Shown: positions 27,448-55,078 of the stretch, one piece after another | How the letters are laid out: every line of letters begins with the position of its first letter | Numbering within the stretch: position 1 is the first letter of the stretch | NCBI GenBank assembly: GCA_963720835.1 | Contig: CAVRHC010000007.1 | Coordinates: 109,177 to 173,176, forward strand | DNA length: 64,000 nt | Origin: an uncultured Pseudomonadota bacterium | GTDB taxonomy: Bacteria > Pseudomonadota > Alphaproteobacteria > Rhizobiales > Xanthobacteraceae | Direction: 5' to 3' | The notes under the pieces: generated by a model | The model's input: only the letters and a program-made list of their open reading frames with translations | What the model was told of the DNA's origin: nothing | Database searches by the model: none | Position numbers and translations under genes: made by a program

Positions 27448-28824
27448 TTACTCCAGGCGCGCCGGTTCGGCGTGACCGATCACGCGCTTGATCGACGGCG
27501 AGCGCTCGCGAAGGGCGCGCTCCAACATGTCGACCTTTTCGTGCACCGATTGCACGGTCAGCGCCGGATCGACGTAGCAATGGAAATTGACGATCTCTCC
27601 GTCATCGGTTTCGCGCACGCGCACGTCGTGGACCTCGCGGATCGTTTTGCCGTCGGCGGCGAACTCCGCAAGCGTGATCTCGATGGCCTTGACCCGTTCG
27701 GGCGGCGCTTCGCGTCCGGCCGCCTCCTGTGGTTGCAAAGGCTCAATATGCGTCTCGACCTCGACATCGGCGCCGAGTTCAGCGGCGATGGCATTCTCCA
27801 GGCCGTCGGCCAAATCGTGAGCGGCGCGCAGCGAGAGCTTTCCGTCGACTTCCAGATCGAGCGCGATCGCCAAGCGGTCCCTCAACGCGTGTACCGTGAC
27901 GTGATGCACGGCGAGCGCCCGGTTGCGCGCGATCACCATGACGCGGTCAAGCACCGTTTCATTGCTGAGCGCCACGGGATCGGTGGTCACCACCGGCTCG
28001 GCGCCCAATATGTTCTTGCGCAACGCTTCGGTCACGGCTTCCTTGATTTCGCGCACGCGTTCGAGCGGCAAGGTGCGGCTGACCGCGACAGTGAGATCGA
28101 CGAAAATTTTCTCGCCGACGGCGCGCGCGCGCACCTGTTCGACCGCGACCACGCCCGGCACCTTTGATGCGGTCGTGGTGATGCTGGCAGTAGCGCCCGG
28201 AGGCGCCACGTCGGTAAGCGCATCGATGGTACGGCGGCCGAGCCGCCAGCCGGCGATGCAGACGACGATCGCGACCGCAAGCGCCGCCGCCGAATCCGCC
28301 CACCACACGCCGAAGCGCACGCCAAAAAGCCCGATCAACACCGCGAGCGAAGCCCACAGGTCGGAGGAAAAATGCAACGCGTCGGCTTCCAGCGCCTGGC
28401 TCGATGTCTTTTCGGCCGTGCGTTTGAGCGCGCGCGATCGCACGAAGTCGACGACGATCGAAACGGCCATAACGCCAAACGCCCAGATATTGGCGTCGAC
28501 GGCGTGCGCCTCGTGCTCGATCAGCCGCTTGCCCGCTTCCCAGATCACGAGGCCTGAGAGCAAGAACAATAATGCTGTTTCCGCTAGCGCAGAGACGTTT
28601 TCGAACTTTCCGTGACCGAACTGATGTTCGGCGTCGGCCGGTTTCCCGGCGACACGCACGGCGGCATAGGTGATTACCGTGGCACCGAGATCGATCAACG
28701 AATGCCCGGCTTCGGAAAGAATCGCGAGCGAGCCGGTAGCAAAGCCGACAAGACCTTTTGCGATTGTCAGTCCTGCCGAGGCGGTAATCGAGGTGAGCGC
28801 GACCTGCTCCTTTTCATTCTGCAT
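27448..28824 (-). CDS. cation diffusion facilitator (CDF) transporter with extended C-terminus
   Basis: TM domain with SLAILSEAGHSLIDL and FGHGKFE CDF signatures. At 458 aa it is about 150 aa longer than the CDFs I know, and the tail looks like three tandem ZT_dimer-like domains. Confidence 0.85.
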   Translation of the reverse strand: MQNEKEQVALTSITASAGLTIAKGLVGFATGSLAILSEAGHSLIDLGATVITYAAVRVAGKPADAEHQFGHGKFENVSALAETALLFLLSGLVIWEAGKRLIEHEAHAVDANIWAFGVMAVSIVVDFVRSRALKRTAEKTSSQALEADALHFSSDLWASLAVLIGLFGVRFGVWWADSAAALAVAIVVCIAGWRLGRRTIDALTDVAPPGATASITTTASKVPGVVAVEQVRARAVGEKIFVDLTVAVSRTLPLERVREIKEAVTEALRKNILGAEPVVTTDPVALSNETVLDRVMVIARNRALAVHHVTVHALRDRLAIALDLEVDGKLSLRAAHDLADGLENAIAAELGADVEVETHIEPLQPQEAAGREAPPERVKAIEITLAEFAADGKTIREVHDVRVRETDDGEIVNFHCYVDPALTVQSVHEKVDMLERALRERSPSIKRVIGHAEPARLE

Positions 28825-29831: not shown

Positions 29832-29936
29832 GGCGTCGTTATTCCCCTTGCGTCGCGCGCCGACAATGCGGGGCCGAACCGCGCTGCGCAATGCTGGAAG
29901 GCCGATGATTCAACGCGCGACATTTGGCTTGTGAAT

Positions 29937-29951
29937 GATATATAATATATC
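29937..29951. promoter_or_regulatory. perfect AT palindrome in the leader of the XRE/Ehr operon
   Basis: GATATAT-A-ATATATC (7-bp arms) inside a strongly AT-rich 130-bp gap. TATAAT hexamers lie at 29941-29946 and 29972-29977, and TTGACA at 29963-29968 with non-canonical spacing. Confidence 0.35.
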
Positions 29952-30019
29952 AATAATGATGCTTGACATTTTATAATGGCTGGCAAAAATATCATTTATC
30001 CCGAGTCTTGCCGGCCATC

Positions 30020-30277
30020 ATGATTACCTCCTCCCAGATGCGTGCCGCACGCGCCTTGCTTGGTATCGACCAGCGCGAGCTGGCGCAGCGCGCGCGGCTG
30101 TCGCTGCCGACCATCCAGCGCATGGAGGCGAGCAAGGGTGTCGTCCGCGGCAATGTCGAGTCGCTGATGAAGCTCGTCGACGCGCTTGCCGCCAACGGCG
30201 TTGAATTGATCGGGGAGGGCGCCGCTTCGTCGAGCGGCGGCCGCGGCGTGCGCATGAGAGGTGCGCCCGGATCATGA
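30020..30277 (+). CDS. XRE-family helix-turn-helix transcriptional regulator (85 aa)
   Basis: MITSSQMRAARALLGIDQRELAQRARLSLPTIQRMEAS is a typical Cro/C1-type HTH. Its stop overlaps the next start (ATGA at 30274-30277). Confidence 0.75.
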   Translation: MITSSQMRAARALLGIDQRELAQRARLSLPTIQRMEASKGVVRGNVESLMKLVDALAANGVELIGEGAASSSGGRGVRMRGAPGS

Positions 30278-32280
30278 CGGTGGCGTACGCGCTTTACGGC
30301 GTTGCCGCGTTGTTGGCGCTTGCGCCAATCGCGCTCGTCTTGGCACGCTCGCCCAGTGCCAGCGGCGTTGTCTATGGTGCGAGCCTGGTCGTGTCGTTGG
30401 CGCTTGGCGCGATTTCGCTGGTGAGCCTATTCAACGAACAGACGTCCACCATTGTCCTGCCGCTCGGCCTGCCGTGGCTGGGCGCTCATTTTCGCATCGA
30501 TGCGCTTGCCGCTTTTTTCCTCGTCGTCGTGAATCTCGGCGGCGCGGCGGCGAGCCTGTTTGCGCTCGGCTATGGCCGCCACGAAGAGACGCCGCAACGT
30601 GTGTTGCCCTTCTATCCCGTATATTTGGCGGCGATGAATCTCGTCGTCATGGCCGACGACGCGTTCAGCTTTCTGGTGGCGTGGGAGTTCATGTCGCTCT
30701 CGTCCTGGGCGCTTGTGATCTCGCATCACCAAGATCGCGAGAATGTGCGTGCCGGTTACGTTTATCTCTTGATGGCGAGCTTCGGCACGCTGGCGCTGCT
30801 GCTTGCCTTCGGGCTCCTGGCTGGCGCTGACGGCAACTACGCTTTCACCAGCATGCGCGAGTCTCATCCTTCCGCCGAACTCGCCGCGCTGGTGCTAATC
30901 CTCGCCGTTGTCGGTGCCGGTTCTAAATCCGGCGTGGTGCCGCTGCATGCCTGGCTGCCGCTCGCGCACCCGGCCGCGCCCAGCCATGTCTCCGCGCTGA
31001 TGAGCGGTGTGATGACCAAAGTCGCGGTCTACGGCTTCGTGCGCATCGTGTTTGATCTGCTCGGCACCCCGGACTGGTGGTGGAGCATGGTGGTGCTGGG
31101 CGTCGGCGGTATCACTGCGGTGATGGGCGTGCTGTACGCGCTGATGCAGAATGACATCAAGCGTGTGCTCGCTTACAGCACTATCGAGAACATCGGTATT
31201 ATTTACTCCGCGCTTGGGCTTGCCCTCGCATTCAAGGCCGAAGGCCTTTCGTTGGCTGCGGCGCTTGCGCTGACCGCCGGCCTGTTTCATGTGTTCAATC
31301 ACTCGCTCTTCAAGAGCCTGCTGTTTTTCGGCGCCGGCAACGTGCTCAACGCGACCGGCGAACGCGATATGGAGAAGCTGGGCGGGCTCATCCATCGCAT
31401 GCCGAAAACGAGCTTCGTGTTTCTGGTCGGCTGTGTGGCGATTTCGGCGCTACCGCCGTTCAACGGCTTCGTCTCGGAGTGGTTGACTTTCCAAGCCGTC
31501 TTGCTCAGCCCGCAAATTCCGTCCTGGGGCTTGAAGCTTCTGGTGCCGACGGTTGGTGCGCTTCTCGCTCTGTCGGCGGCGCTTGCGGCGGCGTGTTTCG
31601 TTCGTGCCTTCGGCATCACATTCCTTGGCCGGCCACGCACTGCCGCGGCGGGTAGGGCGCAGGAAAGCGATCGGTTTTCGCTGGCTGCGATGTACATCTT
31701 TGCTGCGCTGTGTCTGCTCGCCGGGATTTTCCCCGGTGTCTTCATCGATGCGCTGGCGCCGGTGTCGACGGCGCTCATTGGTGCGGCAATGCCGCATCAA
31801 ACAAACGTCGCATGGCTCTCGATCGTGCCGATCGCCGAGAGCCGCAGCTCTTATAATGGGCTCCTGGTCTTTCTCTTTGTGGTCGCCTCGGGTTCGATCG
31901 GCGCCTTCGTCATCCACCGCCTGGCCTCCGATCGACTGCGTCGGGGGCCAGCCTGGGATTGCGGCTATCCCGATCCAAGCCCGGCCACGCAATATACAGC
32001 GTCGAGCTTTGCCCAGCCGATCCGCCGCGTTTTCGGCACAGTAATTTTTCGCGTGCGCGAGATCGGCGCGATGCCGCCGCCAGGCTCGAGTGTGTCGGCC
32101 AAACTGACGGTCGAGGTCCATGATCAGATCTGGGAGGTGCTCTACGCGCCGATTTCCAATCTCATTGCTTTAACCGCCGAACGGCTCAACGTGCTCCAGT
32201 TTCTCACCATCCGCAGCTACCTGACCCTGGTGTTTGCTGCGCTCATCGTGTTGCTGCTCGTGTTGGCGATCTGGCCATGA
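30274..32280 (+). CDS. Ehr/hydrogenase-4 subunit B-like antiporter-type membrane subunit (NuoL/HyfB family)
   Basis: 668-aa polytopic protein with Mrp/NuoL-type motifs (WEFMSLSSW, GSKSGVVPLHAWLPLAHPAAPSHVSALMSG). Confidence 0.9.
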   Translation: MTVAYALYGVAALLALAPIALVLARSPSASGVVYGASLVVSLALGAISLVSLFNEQTSTIVLPLGLPWLGAHFRIDALAAFFLVVVNLGGAAASLFALGYGRHEETPQRVLPFYPVYLAAMNLVVMADDAFSFLVAWEFMSLSSWALVISHHQDRENVRAGYVYLLMASFGTLALLLAFGLLAGADGNYAFTSMRESHPSAELAALVLILAVVGAGSKSGVVPLHAWLPLAHPAAPSHVSALMSGVMTKVAVYGFVRIVFDLLGTPDWWWSMVVLGVGGITAVMGVLYALMQNDIKRVLAYSTIENIGIIYSALGLALAFKAEGLSLAAALALTAGLFHVFNHSLFKSLLFFGAGNVLNATGERDMEKLGGLIHRMPKTSFVFLVGCVAISALPPFNGFVSEWLTFQAVLLSPQIPSWGLKLLVPTVGALLALSAALAAACFVRAFGITFLGRPRTAAAGRAQESDRFSLAAMYIFAALCLLAGIFPGVFIDALAPVSTALIGAAMPHQTNVAWLSIVPIAESRSSYNGLLVFLFVVASGSIGAFVIHRLASDRLRRGPAWDCGYPDPSPATQYTASSFAQPIRRVFGTVIFRVREIGAMPPPGSSVSAKLTVEVHDQIWEVLYAPISNLIALTAERLNVLQFLTIRSYLTLVFAALIVLLLVLAIWP

Positions 32281-33227
32281 TCCGTGATTTGGCGTTGCAG
32301 GGAGGTGAGATGACGCTGGTGCTGTTGCTCAGCCCGCTGCTGACTGGATTCGTGCGCAAGGTGAAAGCCCGACTGTTGCGGCGGCAGGGGCCGCCGCTGT
32401 TGCAGCCCTATCGCGACCTCATCCGGTTGATGCGCAAGGATGTCGTGCTGGCCGAGAGCGCTTCGTGGCTGTTTCGCGTCATTCCATACATTATCTTCGG
32501 AGGGACTTGGGTTGCTGCTTCGCTCGTTCCGACCTTCCGTGGCGGTTTGCTGTTTTCCTGGTCGGCCGATCTCATCGCCATCATCGCGTTGCTCGGTAGC
32601 GCACGTTTTTTTCTCGCGCTCGCCGGTCTCGATGTCGGCACCAGCTTCGGCGGCATCGGTTCGAGCCGCGAGGTGATGATCGCCTCGCTCGCCGAGCCCG
32701 CGATGCTGATGATTGTTTTTGCCATCGCCTTGATCGCGGGCTCGACTCAACTTTCGACCATGGCGGCCTTTATGGCGTCGCCGCAGGTCGGCTTGCGCGT
32801 ATCGCTCGGGCTCGGGCTGATCGCGCTGATTATGGTGGCGATCGCGGAGAACGCGCGTATCCCAGTCGACAACCCGGCGACGCATCTTGAACTCACCATG
32901 GTGCACGAAGCTATGGTGCTCGAATATTCGGGCCGGCATCTGGCGTTGATCGAATTGTCCGCCTTTCTCAAACTGCTGCTCTACGTCTCGCTGATCGCAT
33001 GCCTGTTCGCGCCCTGGAGCACGGCGCGGCCTGACGCCGCGCCACAGGAGCTTGTCGTCGGCGTTGCGGCTTATGTCGTCAAACTCGCAGTCGGCGGCTT
33101 TCTGCTCGCTGTGTTCGAAACGTCGATCGCCAAGATGCGGGTTTTCCGCGTGCCGCAATTCCTCGGCGCCGCCTTGATGCTTGGCGTTGCTCGCGACGCT
33201 GCTGCTTTCGTGTCGGGGAGCTTCTAG
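32277..33227 (+). CDS. NuoH/HycD/HyfC-like membrane subunit
   Basis: 316-aa polytopic protein with the N-terminal KARLLRRQGPPLLQPYRDL motif typical of HycD/NuoH. It overlaps the upstream stop. Confidence 0.85.
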   Translation: MIRDLALQGGEMTLVLLLSPLLTGFVRKVKARLLRRQGPPLLQPYRDLIRLMRKDVVLAESASWLFRVIPYIIFGGTWVAASLVPTFRGGLLFSWSADLIAIIALLGSARFFLALAGLDVGTSFGGIGSSREVMIASLAEPAMLMIVFAIALIAGSTQLSTMAAFMASPQVGLRVSLGLGLIALIMVAIAENARIPVDNPATHLELTMVHEAMVLEYSGRHLALIELSAFLKLLLYVSLIACLFAPWSTARPDAAPQELVVGVAAYVVKLAVGGFLLAVFETSIAKMRVFRVPQFLGAALMLGVARDAAAFVSGSF

Positions 33228-33230
33228 CCG

Positions 33231-33893
33231 ATGCACGGACTTGAGTTCGATATTGCTCACCTGCTTGCCGGCTCTCTCGTGCTGGCGTCATTCCTGTTGC
33301 TTTATCAGGACCGACTCTACGCACTGCTAAACGTGTATGCGTTGCACGCCGTAGTACTCGCGGCTTCGGTCACCTGGCAGGCTTTCATACAGGATGCGCC
33401 GCATCTTTATATTACGGCTGCCATCGCACTCGGCTTCAAGGCCATCATCATTCCGGTAGCGCTCCACCGGATCATCGTGCGCCTCGGCATCCACCGCCAG
33501 ATCGAGACTGTGGTCGGCGTCGGTCCGGCGATGTTGCTCGGCATAGGCCTCGTTGCGTTGTCCATGGTGGTGATGCTGCGGGTGACGGTGGACGCCGATC
33601 CGCTCGCGCGTGAGGACCTCGCTTTCGCGCTTTCTGTCGTGCTGCTCGGTTTGCTGATCATGGTGACGCGGCGCAATGCGGTCAGCCAGGTGATCGGCTT
33701 CATGTCGCTCGAGAACGGCCTGGTGCTTGCCGCGACCGGCGCCAAGGGCATGCCGCTGGTGGTTGAAATCAGTGTCGCCTTTTCGGTGCTGATCGCCTTC
33801 ATCGTCATCGGCATCTTCCTGTTCCGAATTCGGGAAAGGTTCGACACCGTCGACCTGCACGCGCTCGATAAATTCCGTGGAGAGCGCCGATGA
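33231..33893 (+). CDS. HyfE-like (NuoK-related) membrane subunit
   Basis: 220 aa with a C-terminal GFMSLENGLVLAA motif characteristic of hydrogenase-4 component E. Confidence 0.8.
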   Translation: MHGLEFDIAHLLAGSLVLASFLLLYQDRLYALLNVYALHAVVLAASVTWQAFIQDAPHLYITAAIALGFKAIIIPVALHRIIVRLGIHRQIETVVGVGPAMLLGIGLVALSMVVMLRVTVDADPLAREDLAFALSVVLLGLLIMVTRRNAVSQVIGFMSLENGLVLAATGAKGMPLVVEISVAFSVLIAFIVIGIFLFRIRERFDTVDLHALDKFRGERR

Positions 33894-35329
33894 CGATCGA
33901 CGCGCTGACCGGCGTCTTGTTGATCCCTGCGGCCGCGGCCGCGCTGCTGGCCGTGCTGCCCGGCTATCGGCTGACCGCGCGGCTTAACGTGCTGGCGACG
34001 CTGGCGACGTTTCTCACAGCGGTGTCTCTGTTCTTCGTCGAGCCAAAGTCCGGCTCCTATTTGCTGGTGGACGATCTCAATAAGGTCTTCATCGTGTTGA
34101 CGACCTTCGTCGGCTTCACCACCAGCGCTTTCAGCGCAAGCTATATCAGCCACGAGATCGAAACGGGCAAGTTGACGCCGACTTTCGTGCGCTTTTATCA
34201 CGCTATGTACCAGGCGTTGATGTTCGCCATGAATCTCGCGCTGGTCGCCAACAATATCGGGCTGATGTGGGTGGCGATCGAGATGGCGACGCTGACCACC
34301 GTGCTGATGGTCGGCATCTACCGGACGCACGAGGCACTGGAAGCGGCCTGGAAATATTTCATCCTCGGCAGCGTCGGCATCGCGCTCGCCTTGTTCGGCA
34401 CCATTCTCGTCTATATGGCGGCACGGCCGGTGATCGGCGAGGGCCTCGACGCCATGGTGTGGACGGTGCTGATCAAGCGTGCCGACAGTTTCGACGCAGC
34501 GCTGCTCAATGTCGCCTTCGTATTTCTGCTGCTCGGCTACGGCACCAAAGTAGGACTGGCGCCGCTGCATGCATGGTTGCCCGACGCCCATGCCGAAGGC
34601 CCGACGCCCATCTCTGCGGTGCTCTCCGGCCTGCTGCTTAACGTCGCGCTCTATGCGCTGCTGCGCTTCAAAATGTTGCTGGCACTCAATCCGGCAGCGA
34701 TTGCGCCGGGCCCGCTGATGGTGACGATGGGGCTCATCTCCTGTGTGTTCGCCGCGTTCATGTTGTACCGCCGGCGCGACATCAAGCGACTGTTCGCCTA
34801 TTCCTCGATCGAACACATGGGCATCATCGTATTCGCCTTTGGCATGGGCGGACCGCTCGCCAATTTTGCCGGCCTCCTGCACATGACCATGCACTCGCTC
34901 ACCAAATCGGCGATCTTCTTTGCGGTCGGTCACATCTCTCAAGTCAAAGGCACGCAGAAGATTGCCGACATGGGCGGCCTGACGGTAAGCAATCCGGTGC
35001 TTGGTTGGGGCCTAGTACTGGGCGTGGTGGCGATTGCCGGCCTGCCGCCGCTCGGAATTTTCATGAGCGAATTTCTTGTGGTGAGCTCGACCTTTGCGCG
35101 TCAGCCTTGGCTCGCAATCATTCTGGTGTTCGGAATCTTGATTGCGCTCGGCGGCTTGTTCTATCGCCTCAACACCGTGGCCTTCGGCGAGCCACGCGGA
35201 TCGACGGCGCCGACGCATGCTTCCTACGTGCCGATGTTCGCCCATCTCGCGATCGTTTTTGTCGCGGGCTTTTATATGCCGCCGGCGTTGGTTCTCGGCT
35301 TCGAGAACGTCGCCAAGTTGCTAGGATAA
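33890..35329 (+). CDS. NuoN/HyfF-like antiporter-type membrane subunit
   Basis: 479 aa with GTKVGLAPLHAWLPDAHAEGPTPISAVLSG. ATGA overlap with the upstream gene. Confidence 0.9.
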   Translation: MTIDALTGVLLIPAAAAALLAVLPGYRLTARLNVLATLATFLTAVSLFFVEPKSGSYLLVDDLNKVFIVLTTFVGFTTSAFSASYISHEIETGKLTPTFVRFYHAMYQALMFAMNLALVANNIGLMWVAIEMATLTTVLMVGIYRTHEALEAAWKYFILGSVGIALALFGTILVYMAARPVIGEGLDAMVWTVLIKRADSFDAALLNVAFVFLLLGYGTKVGLAPLHAWLPDAHAEGPTPISAVLSGLLLNVALYALLRFKMLLALNPAAIAPGPLMVTMGLISCVFAAFMLYRRRDIKRLFAYSSIEHMGIIVFAFGMGGPLANFAGLLHMTMHSLTKSAIFFAVGHISQVKGTQKIADMGGLTVSNPVLGWGLVLGVVAIAGLPPLGIFMSEFLVVSSTFARQPWLAIILVFGILIALGGLFYRLNTVAFGEPRGSTAPTHASYVPMFAHLAIVFVAGFYMPPALVLGFENVAKLLG

Positions 35330-35334
35330 CGCCC

Positions 35335-36843
35335 ATGGCTTTGTTCAACGACATAAAGCATCGCGAGTATGCCAAGGCGCATCGGCCTTGGCCGCGGCTC
35401 ATTGTCGGCGACGAGGGTTGGAAGCAGGCGATCGATCTGTTGACGAGCGGGCGCTGCACGCTGCTCGGGCTTTGGGGTGATGCGCCCGATGTGCACATGG
35501 CACTGCTTGATGAAACCGCAGGCGACATTGCGGTGATCAGTTACGCTTGCGTCAACGGAAATTTTCCGAGCGTTGCCGCGCACCATCCGCCCGCGATCCG
35601 GCTTGAGCGCGCAATCCGCGATCTGTTCGGCCTCGAAGCGCTGGGCGCGCCCGATGCGCGGACCTGGCTCGACCTCGGCTTCTGGGATGTGCGGCATCCG
35701 CTCGGCAAGAAAAAGCGCGCGCAAAAACCGGCGCCTTACGAATTCTTGCCGGTGGAAGGCGAGGGGCTGCACCAGATTCCGGTCGGCCCCGTGCATGCCG
35801 GCATCATCGAGCCGGGGCATTTCCGTTTCACCGCCAATGGCGAATTCGTGGTGCGGCTGGAGCAGAGGCTCGGCTACGTGCACAAGGGCATCGAGTCCCT
35901 GATGGCCGGATCGACGTTGAGCGAAGCGGCCAAGCTCGCGGGCCGTACCTCCGGCGACAGCACCGTCGCTTACTCATATGCCTTTGCGCAGGCGGCCGAA
36001 GCGGCCTTGCAGGTGGACGTGCCGCCGCGCGCGGTCTACCTGCGCGCGTTGATGGCGGAGCTCGAGCGGCTCGCCAACCATTTCGGCGATATCGGCGCGA
36101 TCTGCAACGATGCTTCCTTTGCGCTGATGCATGCGCAAACAGGTATCCTGCGCGAACGCGTCCTGCGCGCGGCGCAGTTGTGTTTCGGCCACCGGCTAAT
36201 GATGGATGTGATCGTGCCAGGCGGCCTCGCGCGCGATCTTGCGCCGGACGGTGAAAAGGCATTGCGCGATTTGCTGTTCGAGGTACGCAAGGTTTTCCCG
36301 CGGCTGATCGAGCTTTACGACAAAACGGCATCTCTACAGGACCGCACGGTCACCACAGGCATCGCAAAACCGGACTATGTGCGCCAGTTCGGCGCCGGCG
36401 GCTATGTCGGCCGTGCCTCCGGCCGCGCATTCGATGCGCGTCGAAACCTCAACTATGCGCCGTACAACGATCTCAAATTCGAGGTGCCGGTACTGGACGC
36501 CGGCGACGTCAATGCCCGCGTCTGGATCCGCATCCGCGAGGTGGAGCAGAGCCTTGGGCTGATCGAGCAGATCCTCAGCCGCCTGCCGGACGGCAAGACT
36601 GACACGCCGATTAAAGCGAGCGGGCGAATCAGTGAAGGAGCGGCGCTGGTGGAAGCCTTCCGTGGTGACGTCTTGGTTTGGCTGCGGCTCGACGGCAAGG
36701 GGCGCGTGGCGCGCTGCCACTTGCGCGATGCGTCCTGGTTTCAATGGCCGCTCTTGGAGACCGCAATCGAAGACAACATCGTCGCGGATTTTCCGCTCTG
36801 CAACAAGTCGTTCAATTGTTCGTATTCGGGGCACGACCTCTGA
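35335..36843 (+). CDS. NuoC-NuoD fusion / HycE-like large subunit lacking the NiFe cysteine ligands
   Basis: VGPVHAGIIEPGHFRF and RLGYVHKGIE are typical of group-4 hydrogenase large subunits. Where RxCGxCxxxH is expected the sequence reads RTSGDSTVAY, and where DPCxxCxxR is expected it reads NCSYSGHDL followed by the stop. Confidence 0.9.
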   Translation: MALFNDIKHREYAKAHRPWPRLIVGDEGWKQAIDLLTSGRCTLLGLWGDAPDVHMALLDETAGDIAVISYACVNGNFPSVAAHHPPAIRLERAIRDLFGLEALGAPDARTWLDLGFWDVRHPLGKKKRAQKPAPYEFLPVEGEGLHQIPVGPVHAGIIEPGHFRFTANGEFVVRLEQRLGYVHKGIESLMAGSTLSEAAKLAGRTSGDSTVAYSYAFAQAAEAALQVDVPPRAVYLRALMAELERLANHFGDIGAICNDASFALMHAQTGILRERVLRAAQLCFGHRLMMDVIVPGGLARDLAPDGEKALRDLLFEVRKVFPRLIELYDKTASLQDRTVTTGIAKPDYVRQFGAGGYVGRASGRAFDARRNLNYAPYNDLKFEVPVLDAGDVNARVWIRIREVEQSLGLIEQILSRLPDGKTDTPIKASGRISEGAALVEAFRGDVLVWLRLDGKGRVARCHLRDASWFQWPLLETAIEDNIVADFPLCNKSFNCSYSGHDL

Positions 36844-37352
36844 TGCGCCGAATCCTGTTGCAAAGCCTCACGCGCGGTCCGCTCACGGAAGCCGCACCTG
36901 CGCCGGACGAGGCGGCGCTGGCGGAACTCGCCAAGAGCGTCGACCGCGTCGCGCGCGCCAGACTCGGCCGCTCGCTCTCCATTCGCCAGGTTGATGCCGG
37001 CTCCTGCAACGGCTGCGAACTGGAAATCCACGCACTCAGCAATGCCTTCTATGACCTCGAACGCTTTGGTTTTCATTTCGTCGCATCGCCGCGCCATGCC
37101 GACGTCCTGATGGTGACCGGTCCTGTGACCAAGAACATGCGCGAGGCGCTCGAGCGCACTTACAACGCGACGCCCGATCCGAAATGGGTGGTGGCCGTCG
37201 GTGGTTGCGCCGCCGACGGTGGCGCGTTTGCCGGCAGCTATGCGGTGGTCGGTGGCGTGAAAGACGTCATTCCAGTCGATTTGCACATTCGCGGCTGTCC
37301 ACCAACGCCGACCGATCTTCTCAGAGGGCTGCTCGCGCTGCTGACCGTTTGA
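36843..37352 (+). CDS. NuoB/HycG-like small subunit with intact 4-Cys [4Fe-4S] motif
   Basis: GSCNGCE, GGCA and GCPP cysteine motifs. The ATG overlaps the large-subunit stop by 1 nt. Confidence 0.9.
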   Translation: MRRILLQSLTRGPLTEAAPAPDEAALAELAKSVDRVARARLGRSLSIRQVDAGSCNGCELEIHALSNAFYDLERFGFHFVASPRHADVLMVTGPVTKNMREALERTYNATPDPKWVVAVGGCAADGGAFAGSYAVVGGVKDVIPVDLHIRGCPPTPTDLLRGLLALLTV

Positions 37353-37582: not shown

Positions 37583-38092
37583 ATGAGCGCTATGGAAGCT
37601 CTTAGCGATGCTGTCGGCGCCGATTTCCGCGCCACGATGCGCCGGTTCCCCGCCACCGTGACCATCGTGACCGCCAATGACGGGACACGCGATCACGGCA
37701 TGACCGTATCGTCCGTCACGTCGGTATCAATGTCGCCGCCTTCTCTGATGGTCTGTCTGAACAATCGGACGCTGCTGCACGAAATGCTGCTGAGTCAGGC
37801 GAATTTCGCCGTCAACGTGCTCAGCCACGAGCATATGAGCTTGTCGGACGCCTTCAGCGGCCGCGTTGATCCGGAGGTTCGCTTCGCCGCAGGTGGTTGG
37901 GAGCGCGACGAGTTGGGCATGATGGTGCTGCCCTCGGCGCATGCCGTTGTGGTGTGTCGGCGGATGGCCGCTGTGCCCTATGGCACCCACACTATTTTCG
38001 TCGGCCAAGTCACGCGGGCGCGTGTCGATGACCGCACGCGACCGCTGCTATATGCCGAGGCCGCGTATTGCATTTCTCATCCTGCCACTTGA
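37583..38092 (+). CDS. flavin reductase (HpaC/HsaB-type NAD(P)H:flavin oxidoreductase component)
   Basis: 169 aa with FRATMRRFPATVTIVT...GMTVSSVTSVSMSPPSLMVCLN, typical of the flavin_reduct domain. Confidence 0.85.
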   Translation: MSAMEALSDAVGADFRATMRRFPATVTIVTANDGTRDHGMTVSSVTSVSMSPPSLMVCLNNRTLLHEMLLSQANFAVNVLSHEHMSLSDAFSGRVDPEVRFAAGGWERDELGMMVLPSAHAVVVCRRMAAVPYGTHTIFVGQVTRARVDDRTRPLLYAEAAYCISHPAT

Positions 38093-38141
38093 CGGACCGC
38101 GCTGTTAAGCGGCTGTCGCGCCGTTAGGGCCTTTGCCGAAG

Positions 38142-38173
38142 AAAAAATGGCCGGGGGGAGGAACCCGGCCATT
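38142..38173 (-). terminator. rho-independent terminator of the monooxygenase gene
   Basis: On the minus strand, AATGGCCGGG ... CCCGGCCATT forms a 10-bp stem followed by TTTTTT, 10 nt after the stop at 38183. Confidence 0.6.
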
Positions 38174-38182
38174 GTCCGCAAT

Positions 38183-39412
38183 TCAGAATATGCCTTGCGG
38201 TTGCAGTCCTAATTTGTGCGTTCCGTAGAGCGCCGACAGGGTATCCCAATCGATGCTTGCATGGAGTGCTGCGGTGTTGGCGTCGCGCCAGAAACGCTGC
38301 ACGCGATTCTTCTCGTCCGCAGCCGCCGCGCCAACCTTGGTGAAGAGATCGTTGACGACTTCCGACGAGGTCCGCGCGGCAAAGCCATGATTACGCCGGA
38401 TCCGCACACGCTGTTCGATATCGAGTGTACCGCCGTTGCAGACAATGTCCTGGCCTTCCTTAAGGCTGGTCACCATCAGGGTTTGCGCGGCATCGATCCG
38501 CGCGGAGGCCTGACCGATCAGGCTTTGAATGAGCTGCGATTCGGCGACCTTTTCGAAAACGCCGGGACGGGCCATGCGCTTTGCATCGCGAGCGGTTTCC
38601 GTAAAGGCGTCGATCGCCCCTTGCGCCATTCCAACGATGGGCGAAACCAGTGCGGTCGGCCCGAACGTCGGGTAGCCCATACGCGCTTGGCGGTTGCCCG
38701 GAACGTCAAGGCCCGGGACCTTGCCGGAAAAGATAGCGCTCAATGGCAACACGCGATGTTTCGGAACGAAGACCGGATCGACGATGCCAACCGTCTTCGA
38801 ACCGGTGCCCTGAAGTCCGCAAACGTTCCAGCTGTTGTGATCGACAACAACGTCGCTCACCGGTACCAGGCACCAGGCAAGCGCTGGCGGGCCTTCTTTA
38901 TTTGGGTTGGGCAATAGCGCGGCAAGGATCAGCCACGCGGCACTATCGACACCGCTTGCCCACGGCCAGTTGCCGGAGATCTTGTAACCGCCGTCGACCG
39001 CCTCGACCTTGGGTGTCGGCAAATATGAGACGGCGAGAAGGTTGTCCGGATCGTCCCAGACCTCCTGCTGCGCTTCGAGCGGAAAGAAGGCGGTCATCCA
39101 GCCAAAGCAGACTGCGAGGGTCCCGCACCAGCCGGTGCTGCCGCAGGCGCGGCCGAGCTCGAAGCCGATCTGCGCCAGTTCCGCGGGACCGTATTCATAG
39201 CCGCCGAAGCGTTCGGGCTGCATCACACGAAACACGTCCGCATCGCGCAAAGCGTCCATGGTCTCGGCGGGGACGCGTTTGGCTTTTTCGGTAGCGAGGG
39301 CGCGAGCATCGATTTCGGGGCGCAGTTTGCGGATGCGATCAAGGATCATGCTGAATTCCGGCCGCTGCGCCGCGCTAGCGGCGCCAACCGGGCGCAAAGC
39401 TTCCTTCTGCAT
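38183..39412 (-). CDS. acyl-CoA dehydrogenase-fold flavin-dependent monooxygenase, oxygenase component (HsaA/C2-HpaH-like)
   Basis: 409 aa with ACAD-type N, middle and C domains (RVMQPERFGGYEY ... ISGNWPWASG ... RFWRDANTAALH). It is convergent with the flavin reductase gene. Confidence 0.75.
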   Translation of the reverse strand: MQKEALRPVGAASAAQRPEFSMILDRIRKLRPEIDARALATEKAKRVPAETMDALRDADVFRVMQPERFGGYEYGPAELAQIGFELGRACGSTGWCGTLAVCFGWMTAFFPLEAQQEVWDDPDNLLAVSYLPTPKVEAVDGGYKISGNWPWASGVDSAAWLILAALLPNPNKEGPPALAWCLVPVSDVVVDHNSWNVCGLQGTGSKTVGIVDPVFVPKHRVLPLSAIFSGKVPGLDVPGNRQARMGYPTFGPTALVSPIVGMAQGAIDAFTETARDAKRMARPGVFEKVAESQLIQSLIGQASARIDAAQTLMVTSLKEGQDIVCNGGTLDIEQRVRIRRNHGFAARTSSEVVNDLFTKVGAAAADEKNRVQRFWRDANTAALHASIDWDTLSALYGTHKLGLQPQGIF

Positions 39413-39638
39413 TTTTTGTTGTCCTCCCTAGGTGTAACAGTCGTTACGGTTCGTAGTCTGCACCTTTGCGCCGCGTTTGACAAATCCATAGTTACGCCCC
39501 CTGGCGACACAGGATGCGGCGAAGACGTTTTTATTCGCAGTTATGCAGGGTTAGCGAAGAACGCCCACGGGTGCGGCAGGGATGGCGCCGCCGCTCCGGG
39601 GGAAACCACGCGGGCCCGAAAGTGGCGTTGATGTGCGG

Positions 39639-40325
39639 CTAGCGCTTCGGTCTATCCGTGCGGCAGCCTTGCAGGAAAACTTTCACGGCAAGCCGCACCG
39701 TGCGGTCGATGTTTTTAGTGCGGTCTTTTTCGCTCGCAGCGGAGGTAAGCCAGCTTAGCAGATGGTCGCCAATCAGCATGTCGTGAAATAGGACGGCAAG
39801 ACGGCGCGGGTCCTCGTCATCACGGATGTTTCCGGCGCGCTGTTGGGTTGCGATCCAGTCGGTAATGATCTGATAAACGGTGCGCGGACCAGTATCATAG
39901 AACAATTTGCCGACGGTCGGAAATGTACGTCCAATTGAGGTCACCAGGCGATGGAAACGCAGAATTTGTGGTGACAAAACCTTCGACAGGAATGAATGCG
40001 CGATCCGTGTGAGTTGCTCGTCGACGGTGCCGATCGGCCGGGTGTCGATCTGGATGGTGACGTCCTTGCACATCTGTTCGACCACGGCTTCGAACAGCTT
40101 CTCCTTGCTACCGAAATTGGAATAGATCGTACCCTTCGAGCCGCCGACCGCGTCGATGATGTCGTTGATCGAGACGCCGTCGTAGCCCTTCTCGAGGAAC
40201 AGTTTGGCGGCGGAACGGACGATCTTGTCGCGCTTGGTATCGGTGCGCTTTTGGCGCACGGCGGGGCGCGAAACATCGGTTGCTTTGGCTGGCACCCGCG
40301 GGGCCGCACGTTCTGCAGATTCCAT
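39639..40325 (-). CDS. TetR family transcriptional regulator
   Basis: N-terminal HTH IVRSAAKLFLEKGYDGVSINDIIDAVGGSKGTIYSNFGSKEKLF. The start is taken at ATG 40325. Confidence 0.9.
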   Translation of the reverse strand: MESAERAAPRVPAKATDVSRPAVRQKRTDTKRDKIVRSAAKLFLEKGYDGVSINDIIDAVGGSKGTIYSNFGSKEKLFEAVVEQMCKDVTIQIDTRPIGTVDEQLTRIAHSFLSKVLSPQILRFHRLVTSIGRTFPTVGKLFYDTGPRTVYQIITDWIATQQRAGNIRDDEDPRRLAVLFHDMLIGDHLLSWLTSAASEKDRTKNIDRTVRLAVKVFLQGCRTDRPKR

Positions 40326-40395
40326 GGCGCCACCTATGACAATTATTGTTTGCTGACGCCAGCACAAAACCTTTTGACACAAGACGCCGGCTCCA

Positions 40396-40417
40396 GTACC
40401 GTAACATACGGTACGGT
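40396..40417. promoter_or_regulatory. candidate TetR operator in the divergent tetR/yciI-like promoter region
   Basis: GTACCGTA-aca-TACGGTAC (8-bp perfect arms) followed by an overlapping TACGGTACGGT. The same GTACCGTA and TACGGTACGGT words recur at 46974-46990. Confidence 0.5.
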
Positions 40418-40465
40418 TTAAAGATAAAACATCAACCTCATCAATGCCGTATCGGAGGAAAGCGC

Positions 40466-40834
40466 ATGCCGCCGGAATTCGATGCCCGCACGAAAGCGCT
40501 CATCTCACGCATGTGGGGCAAGAAGGTATGGGTCGTGCTGTCGAAGGGCAGCGGTCAGGATATCGTTCCGCATCTCGCCGAGCATCTTGACTACCTGCTA
40601 GCGCTCGAAGCTAAAGGCAAGATCTTCGCGTCCGGGCCCATGAACGTGCCAGGATCTGGCGATGGCATGACGGTGCTCAAGGTCGATACCGAAGAACAAG
40701 CGCGCGCAATCGCCGAAGCGGACCCGCTCGTCAAGAATGCGGGGCGGACCTTCACTCTTCATCCGTGGACGCTGAATGAAGGCCAGATGACGGTGACGGT
40801 CTCCTTCTCGCAAATGGGCTTAAAGCTTGGCTGA
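40466..40834 (+). CDS. YciI-like family protein
   Basis: 122 aa: HLAEHLDYLLALEAKGKIFASGP ... EEQARAIAEADPLVKNAGRTFTLHPW. The start is taken at ATG 40466. Confidence 0.65.
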   Translation: MPPEFDARTKALISRMWGKKVWVVLSKGSGQDIVPHLAEHLDYLLALEAKGKIFASGPMNVPGSGDGMTVLKVDTEEQARAIAEADPLVKNAGRTFTLHPWTLNEGQMTVTVSFSQMGLKLG

Positions 40835-40925
40835 AATCTGAAGGGCCGCGTGTGAGAGATCGGCCGCGACCCGATGAATTGATGAAACGTTGATACCGAC
40901 GACAAGCGAGAGAACGGAGGAAGCT

Positions 40926-41729
40926 ATGATCAAAGTCTCAAGGCGCATTCCGGTGAACGAGCCCGGCCAACCAACGCTCACGCGCGCAGATGTATGGCAG
41001 GGGCTGGTGATGAAGGCGGACAACGCGCTGCCTTTCGTGCCGGGGATGAGCCATTGCGAGGTTCTCAACCGCGAAAGCGACAAGGTCTTCGTGCGCGAGA
41101 TCGAGTTTCGTGGCGAACGCTGCCGTGAGCGGATCACGCTTACACCGCAGGAGCGGGTGAAGTTCGAACGTCTGGATGGCTCAGTGCTGGGCACGATCCT
41201 CAATGAGATCGAAGAAGACGCCGATGGGCTCGGCCTGCGCTTCAGCTTCGAACTGAGCCTGGAAGGGGCGCCGGATGGCAGCCCGGCGGAGAAAGAATAC
41301 GGCGCGATCGTCGAGAAGGATTATCTGAAGGCCGTCGATGCGACGCTCGCCGCCATCCGCAGGCTAAAGTCCGATCGCGACGCGTTGATCAAGCGCTATT
41401 ACGAGACTGTTGATTCCATGAATCTCGAAGCCTTCAAGGCCATGCACAGCAAGAACGCAAAGGTGAAATTCGCCAATTTTCCGGCAGCAGAGGGGCCCGA
41501 TCAAATTGCCGGTGCCATCGGTCAGTTCTGGTCCACGATCGGTGGTCTCAAGCACAATTTCGTCAATCGCTGGGATAATCCCGAAGAGTTGATCCTCGAG
41601 GTGGCGGTCGATTACACACGCAAAGATGGTAAATCGGTGACGATTCCTTGCGTCTCGATTCTCAAGCCCGAAGGCGATAAGGTTGGCGAACTGCGCGTCT
41701 TCATCGACGTGGCGCCGCTCTACGCCTGA
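40926..41729 (+). CDS. DUF1857 (SRPBCC/AtaL-like) - SnoaL/NTF2-like fusion protein
   Basis: The N-terminal half (VNEPGQPTLTRADVWQGLVMKADNALPFVPGMSHCEVL) matches my recollection of DUF1857. The C-terminal half (IKRYYETVDSMNLEAFKAMHSKNAKVKFANFP...ELRVFIDVAPLY) is SnoaL-like. GGAGGA lies upstream of ATG 40926. Confidence 0.55.
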   Translation: MIKVSRRIPVNEPGQPTLTRADVWQGLVMKADNALPFVPGMSHCEVLNRESDKVFVREIEFRGERCRERITLTPQERVKFERLDGSVLGTILNEIEEDADGLGLRFSFELSLEGAPDGSPAEKEYGAIVEKDYLKAVDATLAAIRRLKSDRDALIKRYYETVDSMNLEAFKAMHSKNAKVKFANFPAAEGPDQIAGAIGQFWSTIGGLKHNFVNRWDNPEELILEVAVDYTRKDGKSVTIPCVSILKPEGDKVGELRVFIDVAPLYA

Positions 41730-41755
41730 GCGGCGTCGCTGCTAACGAGGCCCTG

Positions 41756-42625
41756 ATGAGCGTCACCTACCGAGATCTCCGCTATTTGCGCGTCGAGGTG
41801 GATGACCTCGACGCGGCAACGCGGTTTGCCGCGGAGCTTTTCGGTCTGCAGCCTGCGGATCGGGACGACACCCATGCCATGTTCCGATCCGACGCGCGCA
41901 ACTACGCGATCTGCTTCTCGCGCGCGAACGAAGGCGAGGCGGTGGCCTTGACGGTGGCGACCCTTGCAGAACTCGACCAAGTAGCTGAGCGGCTAAAGTT
42001 GAATGGCTACAAGTCGCATCGCCTCGATGCGAACGCGGCGGCTGTGCGGCAGGCGAAAGAGGTACTCGCCGTGACGGCGCCGAATGGAGTGATAGTCGAA
42101 ATCGTCTGGCGGCCCATGACCTCCGGCTGGCGTTATCACGGACCGCGCGATGCCGGCATCGTTGACTTACAGTCGGTGTCGCTTGTCACAACCGACATCG
42201 CGGCCGATGAGGCGTTCTGGACCGAGGGGCTTGGCCTCAGGGTCACCGACTGGGCAGGCGATACCGCCTATCTCGCGCTCGATGACATGCATCATCGGGT
42301 GGCACTTTATCCGTCCAAACGCAACGGTATCCTCGGCGCGACCTGGGCGGTGGAGGGAAAAGACAACGTTATGACGAATTGGTATTTCCTGCAAAAAGCG
42401 CAGGCGCCGATCGTCGCGGGACCGGGACACCAGCCGGCTTCGAATGCCATGTTCCTGACCACGCGCGGTCCACGCGGTCTGCTGATGACCTACGCTGCTG
42501 AAACAAACTCGGGCCCGCACATCGCCGCACGCGGTCCGCGCCAGTTTTCCGATTCGGCGAGCTCGCACTGTGCATGGGGCTCGCCGACGGAGCAGCCCGA
42601 ATTTCTTGGAGGAGATCGCCCATGA
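41756..42625 (+). CDS. VOC-superfamily extradiol dioxygenase paralog, apparently lacking two metal ligands
   Basis: Two-domain glyoxalase/BphC-like protein that aligns along its length with the next gene. It reads LQSVSL where the partner has FSHVGL, and LLMTY where the partner has MTFEY. Confidence 0.7.
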   Translation: MSVTYRDLRYLRVEVDDLDAATRFAAELFGLQPADRDDTHAMFRSDARNYAICFSRANEGEAVALTVATLAELDQVAERLKLNGYKSHRLDANAAAVRQAKEVLAVTAPNGVIVEIVWRPMTSGWRYHGPRDAGIVDLQSVSLVTTDIAADEAFWTEGLGLRVTDWAGDTAYLALDDMHHRVALYPSKRNGILGATWAVEGKDNVMTNWYFLQKAQAPIVAGPGHQPASNAMFLTTRGPRGLLMTYAAETNSGPHIAARGPRQFSDSASSHCAWGSPTEQPEFLGGDRP

Positions 42626-43491
42626 TCGAACTCAATGATGTCGTGTATTGCCGCCTTGGGACCACCGACCTCACAGGCGCGGAGTGGTATGCGGTCAATA
42701 TTCTTGGGCTTGAAATCGCCGAGCAGCGCAAGGGAGCGACTTATTTCAAGTCCGACAACCGTGCGCATACGCTTTGCTATTTTGAAGGCGATCCTGAAGA
42801 CCAAGCGACCGGCTTCGAGCTCGGTCGCAATGAGGACCTGCAGGCGGCTGGCGCGACGTTGGAAAAACTTGGCCACGATGTCCACTACGGTACAGCTGAC
42901 GAATGCGAGGCTCGCCGCGTGCGCGAGTTCATTCGTTTCAAGGATCCGAGCGGCAATACGATTGAGTTTGTTGTGCGTCCTGAAACCACCGGCCAGCGTT
43001 ACCACGGCACGCGCGACGCTGGCATTACCGGATTTTCTCACGTCGGGCTCTGCACCACGGACGCCGCGCGCGACGAAGAGTTCTGGACCACCGTGTGCAA
43101 TGCGCGGGTCTCCGATCGTATTGGCGATGCACCGCTGATGCGGCTCGGCACCATCCACCATTCGATCGCGCTGTTTCCGTTCCATAAGGCCGGCATTCAG
43201 CATATCAATCACCAGGTCGGCGGAACCGACGACATCCAGCGTAGCTTCAATTTCGTACGCGAAAATCAGGTGAAGATTACTTTCGGTCCGGGCCGTCATC
43301 CGACCTCATCGGCGCAGTTTCTCTATTTTACCGGGCCGGAGGGCATGACGTTCGAATACTCGACCGGCGTGCGCCAAATCTATGACGAGCCAGCATGGCG
43401 CGATCGTCAGTTCCACTTCGCGCCGAAAGGATTTTGCCAGTGGGGTGCGGCGCCGCAGATCGCCGCCTTCACGGATAAAAAATCCGCGTGA
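42622..43491 (+). CDS. type I extradiol ring-cleavage dioxygenase (BphC/HsaC-like)
   Basis: FSHVGLCTTD, IHHSIALFP and GPGRHPTSSAQFLYFTGPEGMTFEY, i.e. the His/His/Glu triad context. ATGA overlap with the upstream paralog. Confidence 0.8.
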   Translation: MIELNDVVYCRLGTTDLTGAEWYAVNILGLEIAEQRKGATYFKSDNRAHTLCYFEGDPEDQATGFELGRNEDLQAAGATLEKLGHDVHYGTADECEARRVREFIRFKDPSGNTIEFVVRPETTGQRYHGTRDAGITGFSHVGLCTTDAARDEEFWTTVCNARVSDRIGDAPLMRLGTIHHSIALFPFHKAGIQHINHQVGGTDDIQRSFNFVRENQVKITFGPGRHPTSSAQFLYFTGPEGMTFEYSTGVRQIYDEPAWRDRQFHFAPKGFCQWGAAPQIAAFTDKKSA

Positions 43492-44162: not shown

Positions 44163-44184
44163 GGTTTATGGAGACTCTACGAGT

Positions 44185-49790: not shown

Positions 49791-49803
49791 GCGCCCACGC
49801 GCC

Positions 49804-50694: not shown

Positions 50695-50711
50695 ATTTTT
50701 TTCTCGCGTTT

Positions 50712-51560: not shown

Positions 51561-51562
51561 GA

Positions 51563-53379: not shown

Positions 53380-53423
53380 GCCTTTTTAAGGCATGGAGCC
53401 GCGTTGACGTCGTCGTGCGTACG

Positions 53424-54611: not shown

Positions 54612-55078
54612 TTTGAATCCTCCCTAGCGTGTTTGGTTTTTATACGAAACTCATCGTCTGATTTTCGTGGAACGTCACGTTTCCTTTCTGGATTGCCCCT
54701 TGGTGTCAATTTGCAGTCTATCGCGGCTGCGAGCTGGTCCACCTATTAGCTTAGCGATTTTCGCCGCGTTGCTTTCCGACAGAATGACAGCACCAATTCT
54801 TAATGAGAAAATTGTTCCTCCTAATAGCCCAATAGAAGACCACTATTACCCGCTGGCTTTGGACCGGTGCGAACGCCGTTCTGGTCAGTTGAACGAAAAA
54901 TAGGCAGGTTTTAAGCGCACTTCCGGGCCCAATGCGGGTCGCTTTGAGCTATTGCTCAATCTATTGATATATAACTATTTTCGATATTCTGTGATCTGGT
55001 GAATTCAGGCTGGGCGCTGATATCATCAGTACAACCATACGAGTCTAATCACACTCGACTTTCGGAGGGACAATCATC

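Follow-up and report, generated by a model that had tools for sequence, protein, structure and literature searches.

Replacement of all four NiFe cysteine ligands in the large subunit of a probable Hyq-type complex from an uncultured alphaproteobacterium

What does a hydrogenase-like large subunit do when the residues expected to bind its nickel–iron (NiFe) site are replaced, and does such a gene still belong to a hydrogenase? The question is raised by hyqG, a gene in a 64,000-nucleotide (nt) stretch of contig CAVRHC010000007.1 from an uncultured member of the Xanthobacteraceae (the window, in whose positions all coordinates are given). The gene lies in a tight cluster of mostly overlapping genes on the + strand (30020–37352), and we found that all four NiFe cysteine ligands are replaced in its product, HyqG (S206, S209, S496 and G499). 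The cluster almost certainly encodes a Hyq-type complex of the Ehr class (energy-converting or Ech hydrogenase-related), of the kind orthologous to Azorhizobium caulinodans hyqRBCEFGI. The feature is already known, in that the literature defines HyqG and other Ehr large subunits by the absence of the L1 and L2 cysteines, and the locus adds a further orthologue to a cluster present in hundreds of species.

The first-pass annotation of this DNA had read the L1 motif RxCGxCxxxH as RTSGDSTVAY (residues 204–213), with serine for both cysteines and tyrosine for the histidine, and had pointed to the HycE-like flanking strings VGPVHAGIIEPGHFRF and RLGYVHKGIE. Both strings are present, and the motif, its residues and its coordinates proved exact when HyqG was compared with all Protein Data Bank (PDB) sequences using phmmer and with Escherichia coli HyfG (from NC_000913) using MAFFT. 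The phmmer alignments placed the query RtSGdStvaYs under RvCGiCgfaHs of HycE and RmCGiCsfsHn of MbhL, and MAFFT set RTSGDSTVAYS against RVCGICGFAHS of HyfG in the same register. Attention to L1 alone left that annotation incomplete, as the L2 cysteines, which it overlooked, are gone as well: LDPCYSCTDR of HyfG lies over FNCSYSGHDL, on the MAFFT alignment together with those to HycE and MbhL. The register was identical in three independent alignments. HyqG ends where HyfG reads ...CTDR, and the 32-residue tail of HyfG is missing. Nor does a canonical CxxC sit elsewhere in the protein; across all 502 amino acids (aa), the seven cysteines (C41, C72, C257, C283, C461, C489 and C495) form none.

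The best PDB match of HyqG was HycE of the E. coli formate hydrogenlyase (7z0s_E, E = 2.7e-57), followed by MbhL of Pyrococcus furiosus (6cfw_L, 3.1e-37) and then by the 49-kDa/NuoD subunits of complex I (~1e-30). Complex1_49kDa was the best Pfam family (141.6 bits) and NiFeSe_Hases scored 22.4 bits, under its cutoff of 25.8, while no NCBIfam model reached its own cutoff, the best of the NuoD/NuoCD models being NF004739 (208 bits vs. 360). The protein also carries a NuoC-like domain at its N-terminus. A NuoCD paralogue of complex I was considered and rejected, HyqG falling under all NuoD cutoffs and being closer to HycE. We place the start at the ATG at 35335, with the stop codon ending at 36843; the mechanically called open reading frame (ORF) is longer and begins at an upstream TTG. 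An AlphaFold2 model of HyqG, based on 34 close homologues, had a mean predicted local distance difference test score of 48.9 and a predicted template modelling score of 0.53, and no structural claim made here rests on it.

Conservation was assessed first among the closest homologues, 120 database sequences with 79–99% identity to the large subunit, of which those named at NCBI are Pseudolabrys sp. A one-genome-per-species collection was then scanned with a 12-sequence alignment, giving at least 599 confirmed matches, and the best 80 of these loci (54–81% identity; including Bradyrhizobium, Mesorhizobium, Rhizobium, Rhodopseudomonas palustris, Azospirillum and some Beta- and Gammaproteobacteria) served as the orthologue set for conservation counts. 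GDSTVAY and NCSYSGHDL, or near variants, were kept in all 120 closest homologues. Among the orthologues, S206, G207 and D208 were found in 80/80, S209 in 76/80 and Y213 in 67/80, such that the S-x-x-S pattern persists in nearly all of the set and the earlier view of a specific substitution, as opposed to random decay, is upheld. Since the same residues recur in 120 close homologues and 80 genome loci, chance or sequencing error is excluded, and the replaced residues are under strong purifying selection; synonymous sites are saturated at the divergences concerned.

Few parts of HyqG are as constrained as its former active-site elements, the L2 lead-in, the EPGHFRF loop and L1 all ranking among its least variable segments. 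In a ranking of non-overlapping 10-residue segments by column entropy, the least variable was the L2 lead-in DFPLCNKSFN and the second VGPVHAGIIE, in the EPGHFRF loop, followed by RDASWFQWPL and then by GDIGAICNDA; the ten least variable include the L2 segment and, at L1, RTSGDSTVAY. Second-sphere residues of hydrogenases are kept as well, namely E159 of EPGH, R443 (the equivalent of the PRG arginine of HycE) and D501; like the replacement residues, the EPGHFRF loop, R443 (in FRG) and D501 hardly vary. The segment E440–G444 aligns with HycE 'eaPRGdd', where the complex I 49-kDa subunit reads 'eaPKGe', and E440, R443 and G444 were invariant across 26 diverse family members. C489 (97%) and C495 (96%) are highly conserved among the 80 orthologues, with C495 one residue before the first canonical L2 cysteine position. 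Near-invariance of the replaced residues indicates that the pocket is still doing something specific.

To place HyqG in its wider family, we searched 50%-identity representatives exhaustively, which returned 7483 relatives, and aligned 95 near-full-length top matches (36–61% identity). Their L1 consensus was R-x-S-G-D-[S/T]-x-V/F-A-[H/Y] and their L2 consensus N-L/C-S-Y-S/A-G-x-D-L, with SGD[ST] persisting down to ~36% identity. Conservation of C489 and C495 is confined to the Hyq clade; most Cys-less Ehr relatives at greater distance have I/L/V and L at these positions. Ten relatives with 37–42% identity keep RxCGxCxxSH and ELCYSCxDR (P0185, P0200, P0209, P0217, P0218, P0230, P0241, P0264, P0265 and P0267), and seven keep the first L1 cysteine only (R-x-C-G-D-S...), with an L2 of the LAYAG type (P0139, P0168, P0174, P0239, P0242, P0253 and P0256). 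The Cys-containing relatives are probably group 4f [NiFe]-hydrogenases, an assignment taken from a statement in the literature (PMC10284858).

When a rough neighbour-joining tree was rooted on HyfG, Cys-containing sequences came out basal and all Cys-less ones formed one large cluster apart from them, within which the first-Cys-only sequences were nested as two or three small groups. On this topology, loss of the cysteines would be an early event that predates diversification of the Cys-less group, and the new residues would have been under selection ever since.

The assignment to Hyq draws on named relatives and on published descriptions. Window HyqG is 68% identical to its counterpart on pRL11 of Rhizobium johnstonii (R. 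leguminosarum bv. viciae) 3841, where the locus has the same seven genes, and 66, 65 and 64% identical to those of Bradyrhizobium, Azospirillum and R. palustris, respectively; the genera of all four are included among those named as Hyq carriers (Sprecher 2012, PMC3357923). The Hyq 'endo-hydrogenase' of A. caulinodans is encoded by AZC_4360–4355 (Ng 2009, PMC2650096; Ciccolella 2010, PMC2930871; Sprecher 2012, PMC3357923), and in the same papers hyqRBCEFGI comprises a regulator and six structural genes named after their hyf homologues, with no hyfA or hyfD. HyqG is described there as a 504-residue NuoC::NuoD fusion without either CxxC motif, whose family has three conserved cysteines (A. caulinodans Cys-258, -491 and -497), and HyqI as a NuoB homologue with Cys-55, -58, -112 and -152 (Sprecher 2012, PMC3357923); our count in the window gives C122 for the third of these. 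The Ehr class consists of group-4-like complexes close to group 4f, the large subunits of which are without CxxC ligands, and its function is described as unknown in the literature that cites it (PMC10284858, PMC7304191, PMC6349859, PMC4378227, PMC7894505). Its definition goes back, as far as it is cited in PMC6349859, PMC7894505 and PMC6728331, to Coppi 2005 and Marreiros 2013, and Degli Esposti 2015 listed 'ehr' and 'hyq' together as group-4 subtypes without canonical Ni–Fe ligands.

The remaining genes of the cluster are given in Table 1. Gene annotation covered window 1–48.4 kilobases (kb), and negative findings on genes in the window refer to that part. With twelve E. coli hyf-locus proteins as tblastn queries against the window, B, C, E, F, G and I were matched, HyfD matched the HyfB-like and HyfF-like genes only, and HyfA, HyfH (NuoI-like, 2x[4Fe-4S]), HyfJ, HyfR and FocB had no match. 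The operon had been called intact, which is borne out for the six structural genes and their order but not against the full E. coli hyf operon, of which hyfA, hyfD, hyfH, hyfJ, hyfR and focB are missing. The order B-C-E-F-G-I was kept in every related locus with enough sequence.

Table 1. Positions in the window of hyqG, of its conserved segments and of the other features of the hyq cluster
Feature	Position	Strand	Description
Promoter-like region	29917..29990	+	AT-rich intergenic, upstream of hyqR; GCGACA-18-TATAAT at 29917-29946 and TTGACA-16-AAAAAT at 29963-29990; consensus matches only
hyqR-like	30020..30277	+	Small XRE-type helix-turn-helix (HTH) regulator, 85 aa from ATG 30020; Pfam HTH_3 / HTH_31; mechanical ORF starts at TTG 29963
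hyqB	30274..32280	+	HyfB/NuoL-like antiporter-like membrane subunit, 668 aa; Pfam Proton_antipo_M
hyqC	32277..33227	+	HycD/HyfC/NuoH-like membrane subunit, 316 aa; Pfam NADHdh 8e-39
hyqE	33231..33893	+	HyfE-like small membrane subunit, 220 aa; tblastn match to E. coli HyfE
hyqF	33890..35329	+	HyfF/NuoM-like antiporter-like membrane subunit, 479 aa
hyqG	35335..36843	+	HycE/HyfG-type NuoC-NuoD fusion, 502 aa, without NiFe ligands and without C-terminal maturation extension
Hydrogenase-type loop VGPVHAGIIEPGHFRF	35782..35829	+	HyqG residues 150-165, including E159; nearly invariant in 80 orthologues
L1-equivalent segment RTSGDSTVAY	35944..35973	+	HyqG residues 204-213; Cys to S206, Cys to S209, His to Y213; D208 invariant
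C257	36103..36105	+	96% conserved in 80 orthologues; column is Cys in HycE, HyfG and P0217 too
E440-A-F-R443-G444	36652..36666	+	Equivalent of hydrogenase 'EAPRG'; arginine kept
C-terminal segment C489-NKSFN-C495-SYSGHDL	36799..36840	+	L2 equivalent of DPCxxCxxR reads NCSYSGHDL; Cys to S496, Cys to G499
hyqI	36843..37352	+	NuoB/HycG-like small subunit, 169 aa; Pfam Oxidored_q6; four Cys for one [4Fe-4S] cluster

Both large membrane subunits scored well above model cutoffs, hyqB against NF005086 'hydrogenase 4 subunit B' (893 bits, cutoff 667) and hyqF against NF005043 'hydrogenase 4 subunit F' (866 bits, cutoff 533), while hyqE matched NF008556 'hydrogenase 4 membrane subunit' under its cutoff (9.5e-25) and hyqC was 36% identical to E. 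coli HyfC (tblastn). Charged residues of the membrane arm were strongly conserved: E138, K218, K249 and K347 of HyqB were invariant in 58/58 orthologues, as were E131, K220, N251, K339 and E394 of HyqF in 76/76, and 27 charged residues of HyqC were at least 97% conserved (68 orthologues). Compared with E. coli NuoM (7p61_M), HyqF keeps the lysine of the NuoM KMPVVPLHGWLPDAH segment (K220) and the glutamate of the GEFMIL segment (E394), and has N251 for the lysine of the LLKTAAYG segment. In HyqI, the cysteines of CNGC, GGCA and GCPP align with those of HycG (7z0s_G) and MbhJ (6cfw_J), and C55, C58, C122 and C152 were 100% conserved in 49 orthologues.

The stop codon of one gene overlaps the start codon of the next by 4 nt (ATGA) between hyqR and hyqB (30274–30277), hyqB and hyqC (32277–32280) and hyqE and hyqF (33890–33893), and by 1 nt (TGATG, at 36843) between hyqG and hyqI, and these four junctions suggest that translation is coupled along the cluster, from the regulator into the structural genes. 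The hyqR-like HTH gene was the sole recurrent neighbour, occurring in 36 of the loci that were screened with at least 18 kb of sequence. Most loci have it upstream, on the strand of the structural genes, while in Bradyrhizobium-type loci (L011, L014, L017, L022, L024, L026 and L032) it lies immediately downstream of hyqI on the opposite, minus strand (~12180–12610 in the coordinates of these loci); the regulator is linked to the cluster, and its position is not fixed. When the flanks of related loci were clustered in search of a redox partner (fdh, nuoEF, nuoI, hyp, nif), this regulator alone recurred. Neither hyp nor fdh genes, nor any of HycF/HyfH-like or HyfA-like type, turned up in the window, and none recurred within ~5 kb of the cluster in related loci.

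Upstream of hyqR, a very AT-rich spacer (29892–30019) separates the cluster from a divergent GFO/IDH/MocA oxidoreductase gene and contains five sigma-70-like sites on both strands, compared with 0.2 expected in shuffles. A search for sigma-54 −24/−12 promoters found none in the region upstream of hyqR, and the 30 matches across the window, with 31.9 expected, are at chance level.

Weighing these results, the balance tips slightly towards a nickel-free, six-subunit complex I core of Hyq/Ehr identity as the explanation of the whole locus. Such a complex could not assemble a canonical NiFe(CN)2CO site, and would consist of one [4Fe-4S] cluster and an intact ion-translocating membrane arm. Electrons would pass between the HyqI cluster and a substrate in a remodelled pocket at the HyqG/HyqI/HyqC interface, most likely a membrane quinone or quinol; quinone has been proposed as the Hyq substrate by Sprecher et al. 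(PMC3357923). This redox step and the translocation of protons or cations by HyqB, HyqF, HyqE and HyqC would be coupled, probably in a reversible manner. A soluble low-potential carrier could dock directly on the cytoplasmic face, because no NuoI-like subunit covers it, and the Ser-Gly-Asp-Ser and Asn-Cys-Ser-Tyr-Ser-Gly segments would form a polar lining of the coupling chamber, not metal ligands. We regard the mechanism in this specific form as evenly poised between right and wrong. It is supported by the kept [4Fe-4S] ligands, by the invariant antiporter-like charged residues, by the finding that neither window 1–48.4 kb nor the conserved surroundings of the cluster hold a NuoI/HycF, HyfA, fdh or hyp gene, and by the M. 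tuberculosis Ehr cluster noted below.

Several points weigh against the nickel-free core. In the ungapped HMMER alignment, the quinone-binding tyrosine of NuoD (RLDY) falls on G207 and the histidine of the β1–β2 loop on I158, so a quinone site in the style of complex I is not conserved; the register of this loop relative to the complex I 49-kDa subunit is uncertain by 1–2 residues, and no His/Tyr pair results either way. The cytoplasmic electron donor or acceptor of the HyqI cluster is one that we entirely infer, and the literature we searched yielded no biochemical or structural work on any Hyq or Ehr complex. Finally, genetics in A. caulinodans tie Hyq to H2, which a simple reading of the complex as not a hydrogenase leaves unexplained (PMC2650096, PMC2930871, PMC3357923).

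The same genetics are the basis of the best-surviving alternative, in which Hyq would be a true hydrogenase whose active site is non-canonical (the 'endo-hydrogenase' of Ludwig and co-workers) and would act as a reversible H2:ubiquinone oxidoreductase. In A. caulinodans, diazotrophic growth is slower after an in-frame deletion of hyq, nodules formed by hup hyq double mutants no longer recycle H2 and evolve it while those of single mutants keep recycling and evolve none, and H2 evolution below 1 μM O2 has been attributed to Hyq (PMC2650096, PMC2930871, PMC3357923). Candidate metal ligands would be C257, C489, C495 and D208, together with the retained second-sphere residues E159 and R443; retention of the EPGHFRF loop, the FRG arginine and D501 and the position of C495, directly before the first L2 cysteine, fit this proposal. 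We nevertheless consider it unlikely, given that all four defining [NiFe] ligands are absent, HyqG has no C-terminal extension, hyp genes are neither in the window nor recurrent near the cluster, and most of the wider Cys-less family keeps SGD[ST] and not C489/C495. Support for a hydrogenase has come from in vivo genetics only, and the original authors themselves called the NiFe site 'uncertain, if not unlikely' (Sprecher 2012, PMC3357923). Consistent with these objections, Rv0082–Rv0087 of Mycobacterium tuberculosis is an Ehr cluster in an organism reported to be without NiFe maturation genes (PMC6728331).

It is also conceivable, though we would give it a rather small chance, that the conserved pocket residues (S206-G-D208-S209, C257, C489, C495, E159, R443 and D501) make up a previously undescribed catalytic or metal-binding site. 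If so, the site could explain Hyq-dependent H2 uptake and evolution without ligation of NiFe by four cysteines, or could act on a substrate other than H2, and in both cases the hydrogenase/complex I superfamily would gain an active site of a new type.

An equally small chance attaches to a redox-independent, Mrp-like cation/proton antiporter, in which the HyqG/HyqI arm would be a structural or regulatory relic and its iron–sulphur cluster a structural element or redox sensor. The membrane subunits are indeed Mrp/NuoL/M-like with their key charged residues all kept, and neither an electron-input subunit nor a gene for a substrate-oxidising partner is linked to the cluster. However, the least variable parts of HyqG are the L2 flank, the EPGHFRF loop, the C257 helix and L1, and with the four cluster cysteines of HyqI conserved throughout, the constraint exceeds what would be expected of a relic. 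Mrp antiporters, moreover, function without an arm like HyqG/HyqI. Decay of a former Hyf/Hyc hydrogenase to a pseudogene, or a canonical CxxC placed elsewhere, has nothing beyond the missing cysteines in its favour and is refuted by the intact 502-aa frame (in 120 close homologues and 80 genome loci), the invariant substituted residues, the lack of any CxxC and the consistent register.

Beyond the cluster, the flanks hold ordinary chromosome content, including genes for cytochrome c maturation, two-component systems, GlnE, PepN, a cation diffusion facilitator (CDF) transporter, aromatic-ring dioxygenase-like proteins and FolD; no hup or nif genes were found in the window. The CDF transporter (27448–28824, − strand, 458 aa) has three matched ZT_dimer stretches compared with the usual one. 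Downstream of hyq, a catabolic-looking set (37583–44739) comprises a flavin reductase, an acyl-CoA-dehydrogenase-fold protein, a TetR regulator, a YCII protein, an AtaL+SnoaL fusion, two adjacent extradiol-dioxygenase-like genes (whose ORFs overlap by 52 nt), a class II aldolase and a flavin mononucleotide reductase. None of these genes recurs beside hyq in the screened loci, and a functional link to the neighbouring flavin reductase and acyl-CoA-dehydrogenase-like genes was rejected, as they are not conserved beside the cluster elsewhere and a separate promoter-like site serves the flavin reductase gene. At the right end of the window (~49000–64000), third-position guanine-plus-cytosine content of likely genes is ~0.60–0.70, compared with 0.75–0.83 in the left 30 kb, and this segment, which includes ABC-transporter-like genes, may be of different origin.

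The locus also bears on how such genes are labelled. Close homologues are called 'Ni,Fe-hydrogenase III large subunit' by the Joint Genome Institute, while RefSeq labels a HyqG orthologue 'NADH-quinone oxidoreductase subunit C' with 'hydrogenase 4 subunit B/F' as its neighbours. In the Rhizobium plasmid records CP050084.1 and CP053209.2 the HyqG orthologue is labelled 'hydrogenase expression protein HypE', a clear mis-annotation. Because HyqG homologues carry hydrogenase labels, metagenomic surveys can overcount H2 metabolism unless the L1 and L2 cysteines are checked, and the window is a clean example. The family is widespread, with the at least 599 stretches noted above, and common in soil bacteria, with rhizobia, Bradyrhizobium, Rhodopseudomonas and Azospirillum among its frequent carriers. 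On involvement in H2 metabolism, in vivo genetics says yes and sequence logic says no, and the window contributes an orthologue without shifting that balance; what keeps the locus of interest is the function of the family and how often its members are mis-annotated as hydrogenases.

Among known systems, A. caulinodans Hyq is the closest counterpart, likened here through its published description, with orthology shown through strain 3841, R. palustris, Bradyrhizobium and Azospirillum (64–68% identity). Both loci have seven genes in the identical order R-B-C-E-F-G-I with similar subunit lengths (HyqG ~502–504 aa), a NuoC–NuoD fusion lacking both CxxC motifs, and no hyfA, hyfD or hyfH. The three conserved cysteines of A. 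caulinodans HyqG (258/491/497) correspond to C257/C489/C495 of the window protein, and Cys-55, -58 and -152 of HyqI have identical numbers in both. The two organisms are both in or near the Xanthobacteraceae, the closest named relatives of the window being Pseudolabrys sp. They differ in that A. caulinodans hyq has a NifA box and a sigma-54 promoter, whereas the region upstream in the window has only sigma-70-like matches and no nif genes were found at window 1–48.4 kb, and control by NifA and sigma-54 is probably not a feature of the whole Hyq family.

Ehr complexes more broadly, such as GSU0739–45 of Geobacter sulfurreducens and Rv0082–Rv0087 of M. tuberculosis, share, to the extent that the sources cited here describe them, a group-4-like large subunit without NiFe cysteines, a NuoB-like small subunit and NuoH-like, NuoL/M-like and HyfE-like membrane subunits. 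Within this broad class, the window represents the alphaproteobacterial Hyq subclade, with C489/C495 and a tyrosine at the L1 histidine position. Some Ehr clusters are linked to fdhA/nuoEF (Riflemargulisbacteria), in contrast to the window cluster. The Cys-containing nearest relatives resemble window HyqG in equal length, NuoC–NuoD fusion and lack of a C-terminal extension; their VGPxHAGIIEPGHFRF loop is identical or one residue off in most, and PDFPLINKSF leads in to L2, but unlike HyqG they keep the L1 and L2 cysteine motifs.

Compared with E. coli Hyf/Hyc (cryo-electron microscopy structure 7Z0S), subunits B, C, E, F, G and I are homologous at 32–44% identity (tblastn), HyqG and HyfG being 30% identical by MAFFT, and the EPGHFR loop, the PRG/FRG arginine and the same four small-subunit cysteines are shared. 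HycE and HyfG differ in having RxCGxCxxxH, DPCxxCxxR and a cleaved C-terminal extension, and their operons in having HycF/HyfH (2x[4Fe-4S]), HycB/HyfA, maturation genes and a link to formate. Complex I has NuoI, NuoA, the NuoJ/K set and the N-module, unlike the window cluster. Its Q-module (NuoCD/NuoB), together with MBS/Mbx of P. furiosus (6U8Y), nonetheless resembles the window complex in having a hydrogenase-derived pocket without NiFe beside a single N2-type cluster, and in the coupling of that pocket to antiporter-like subunits.

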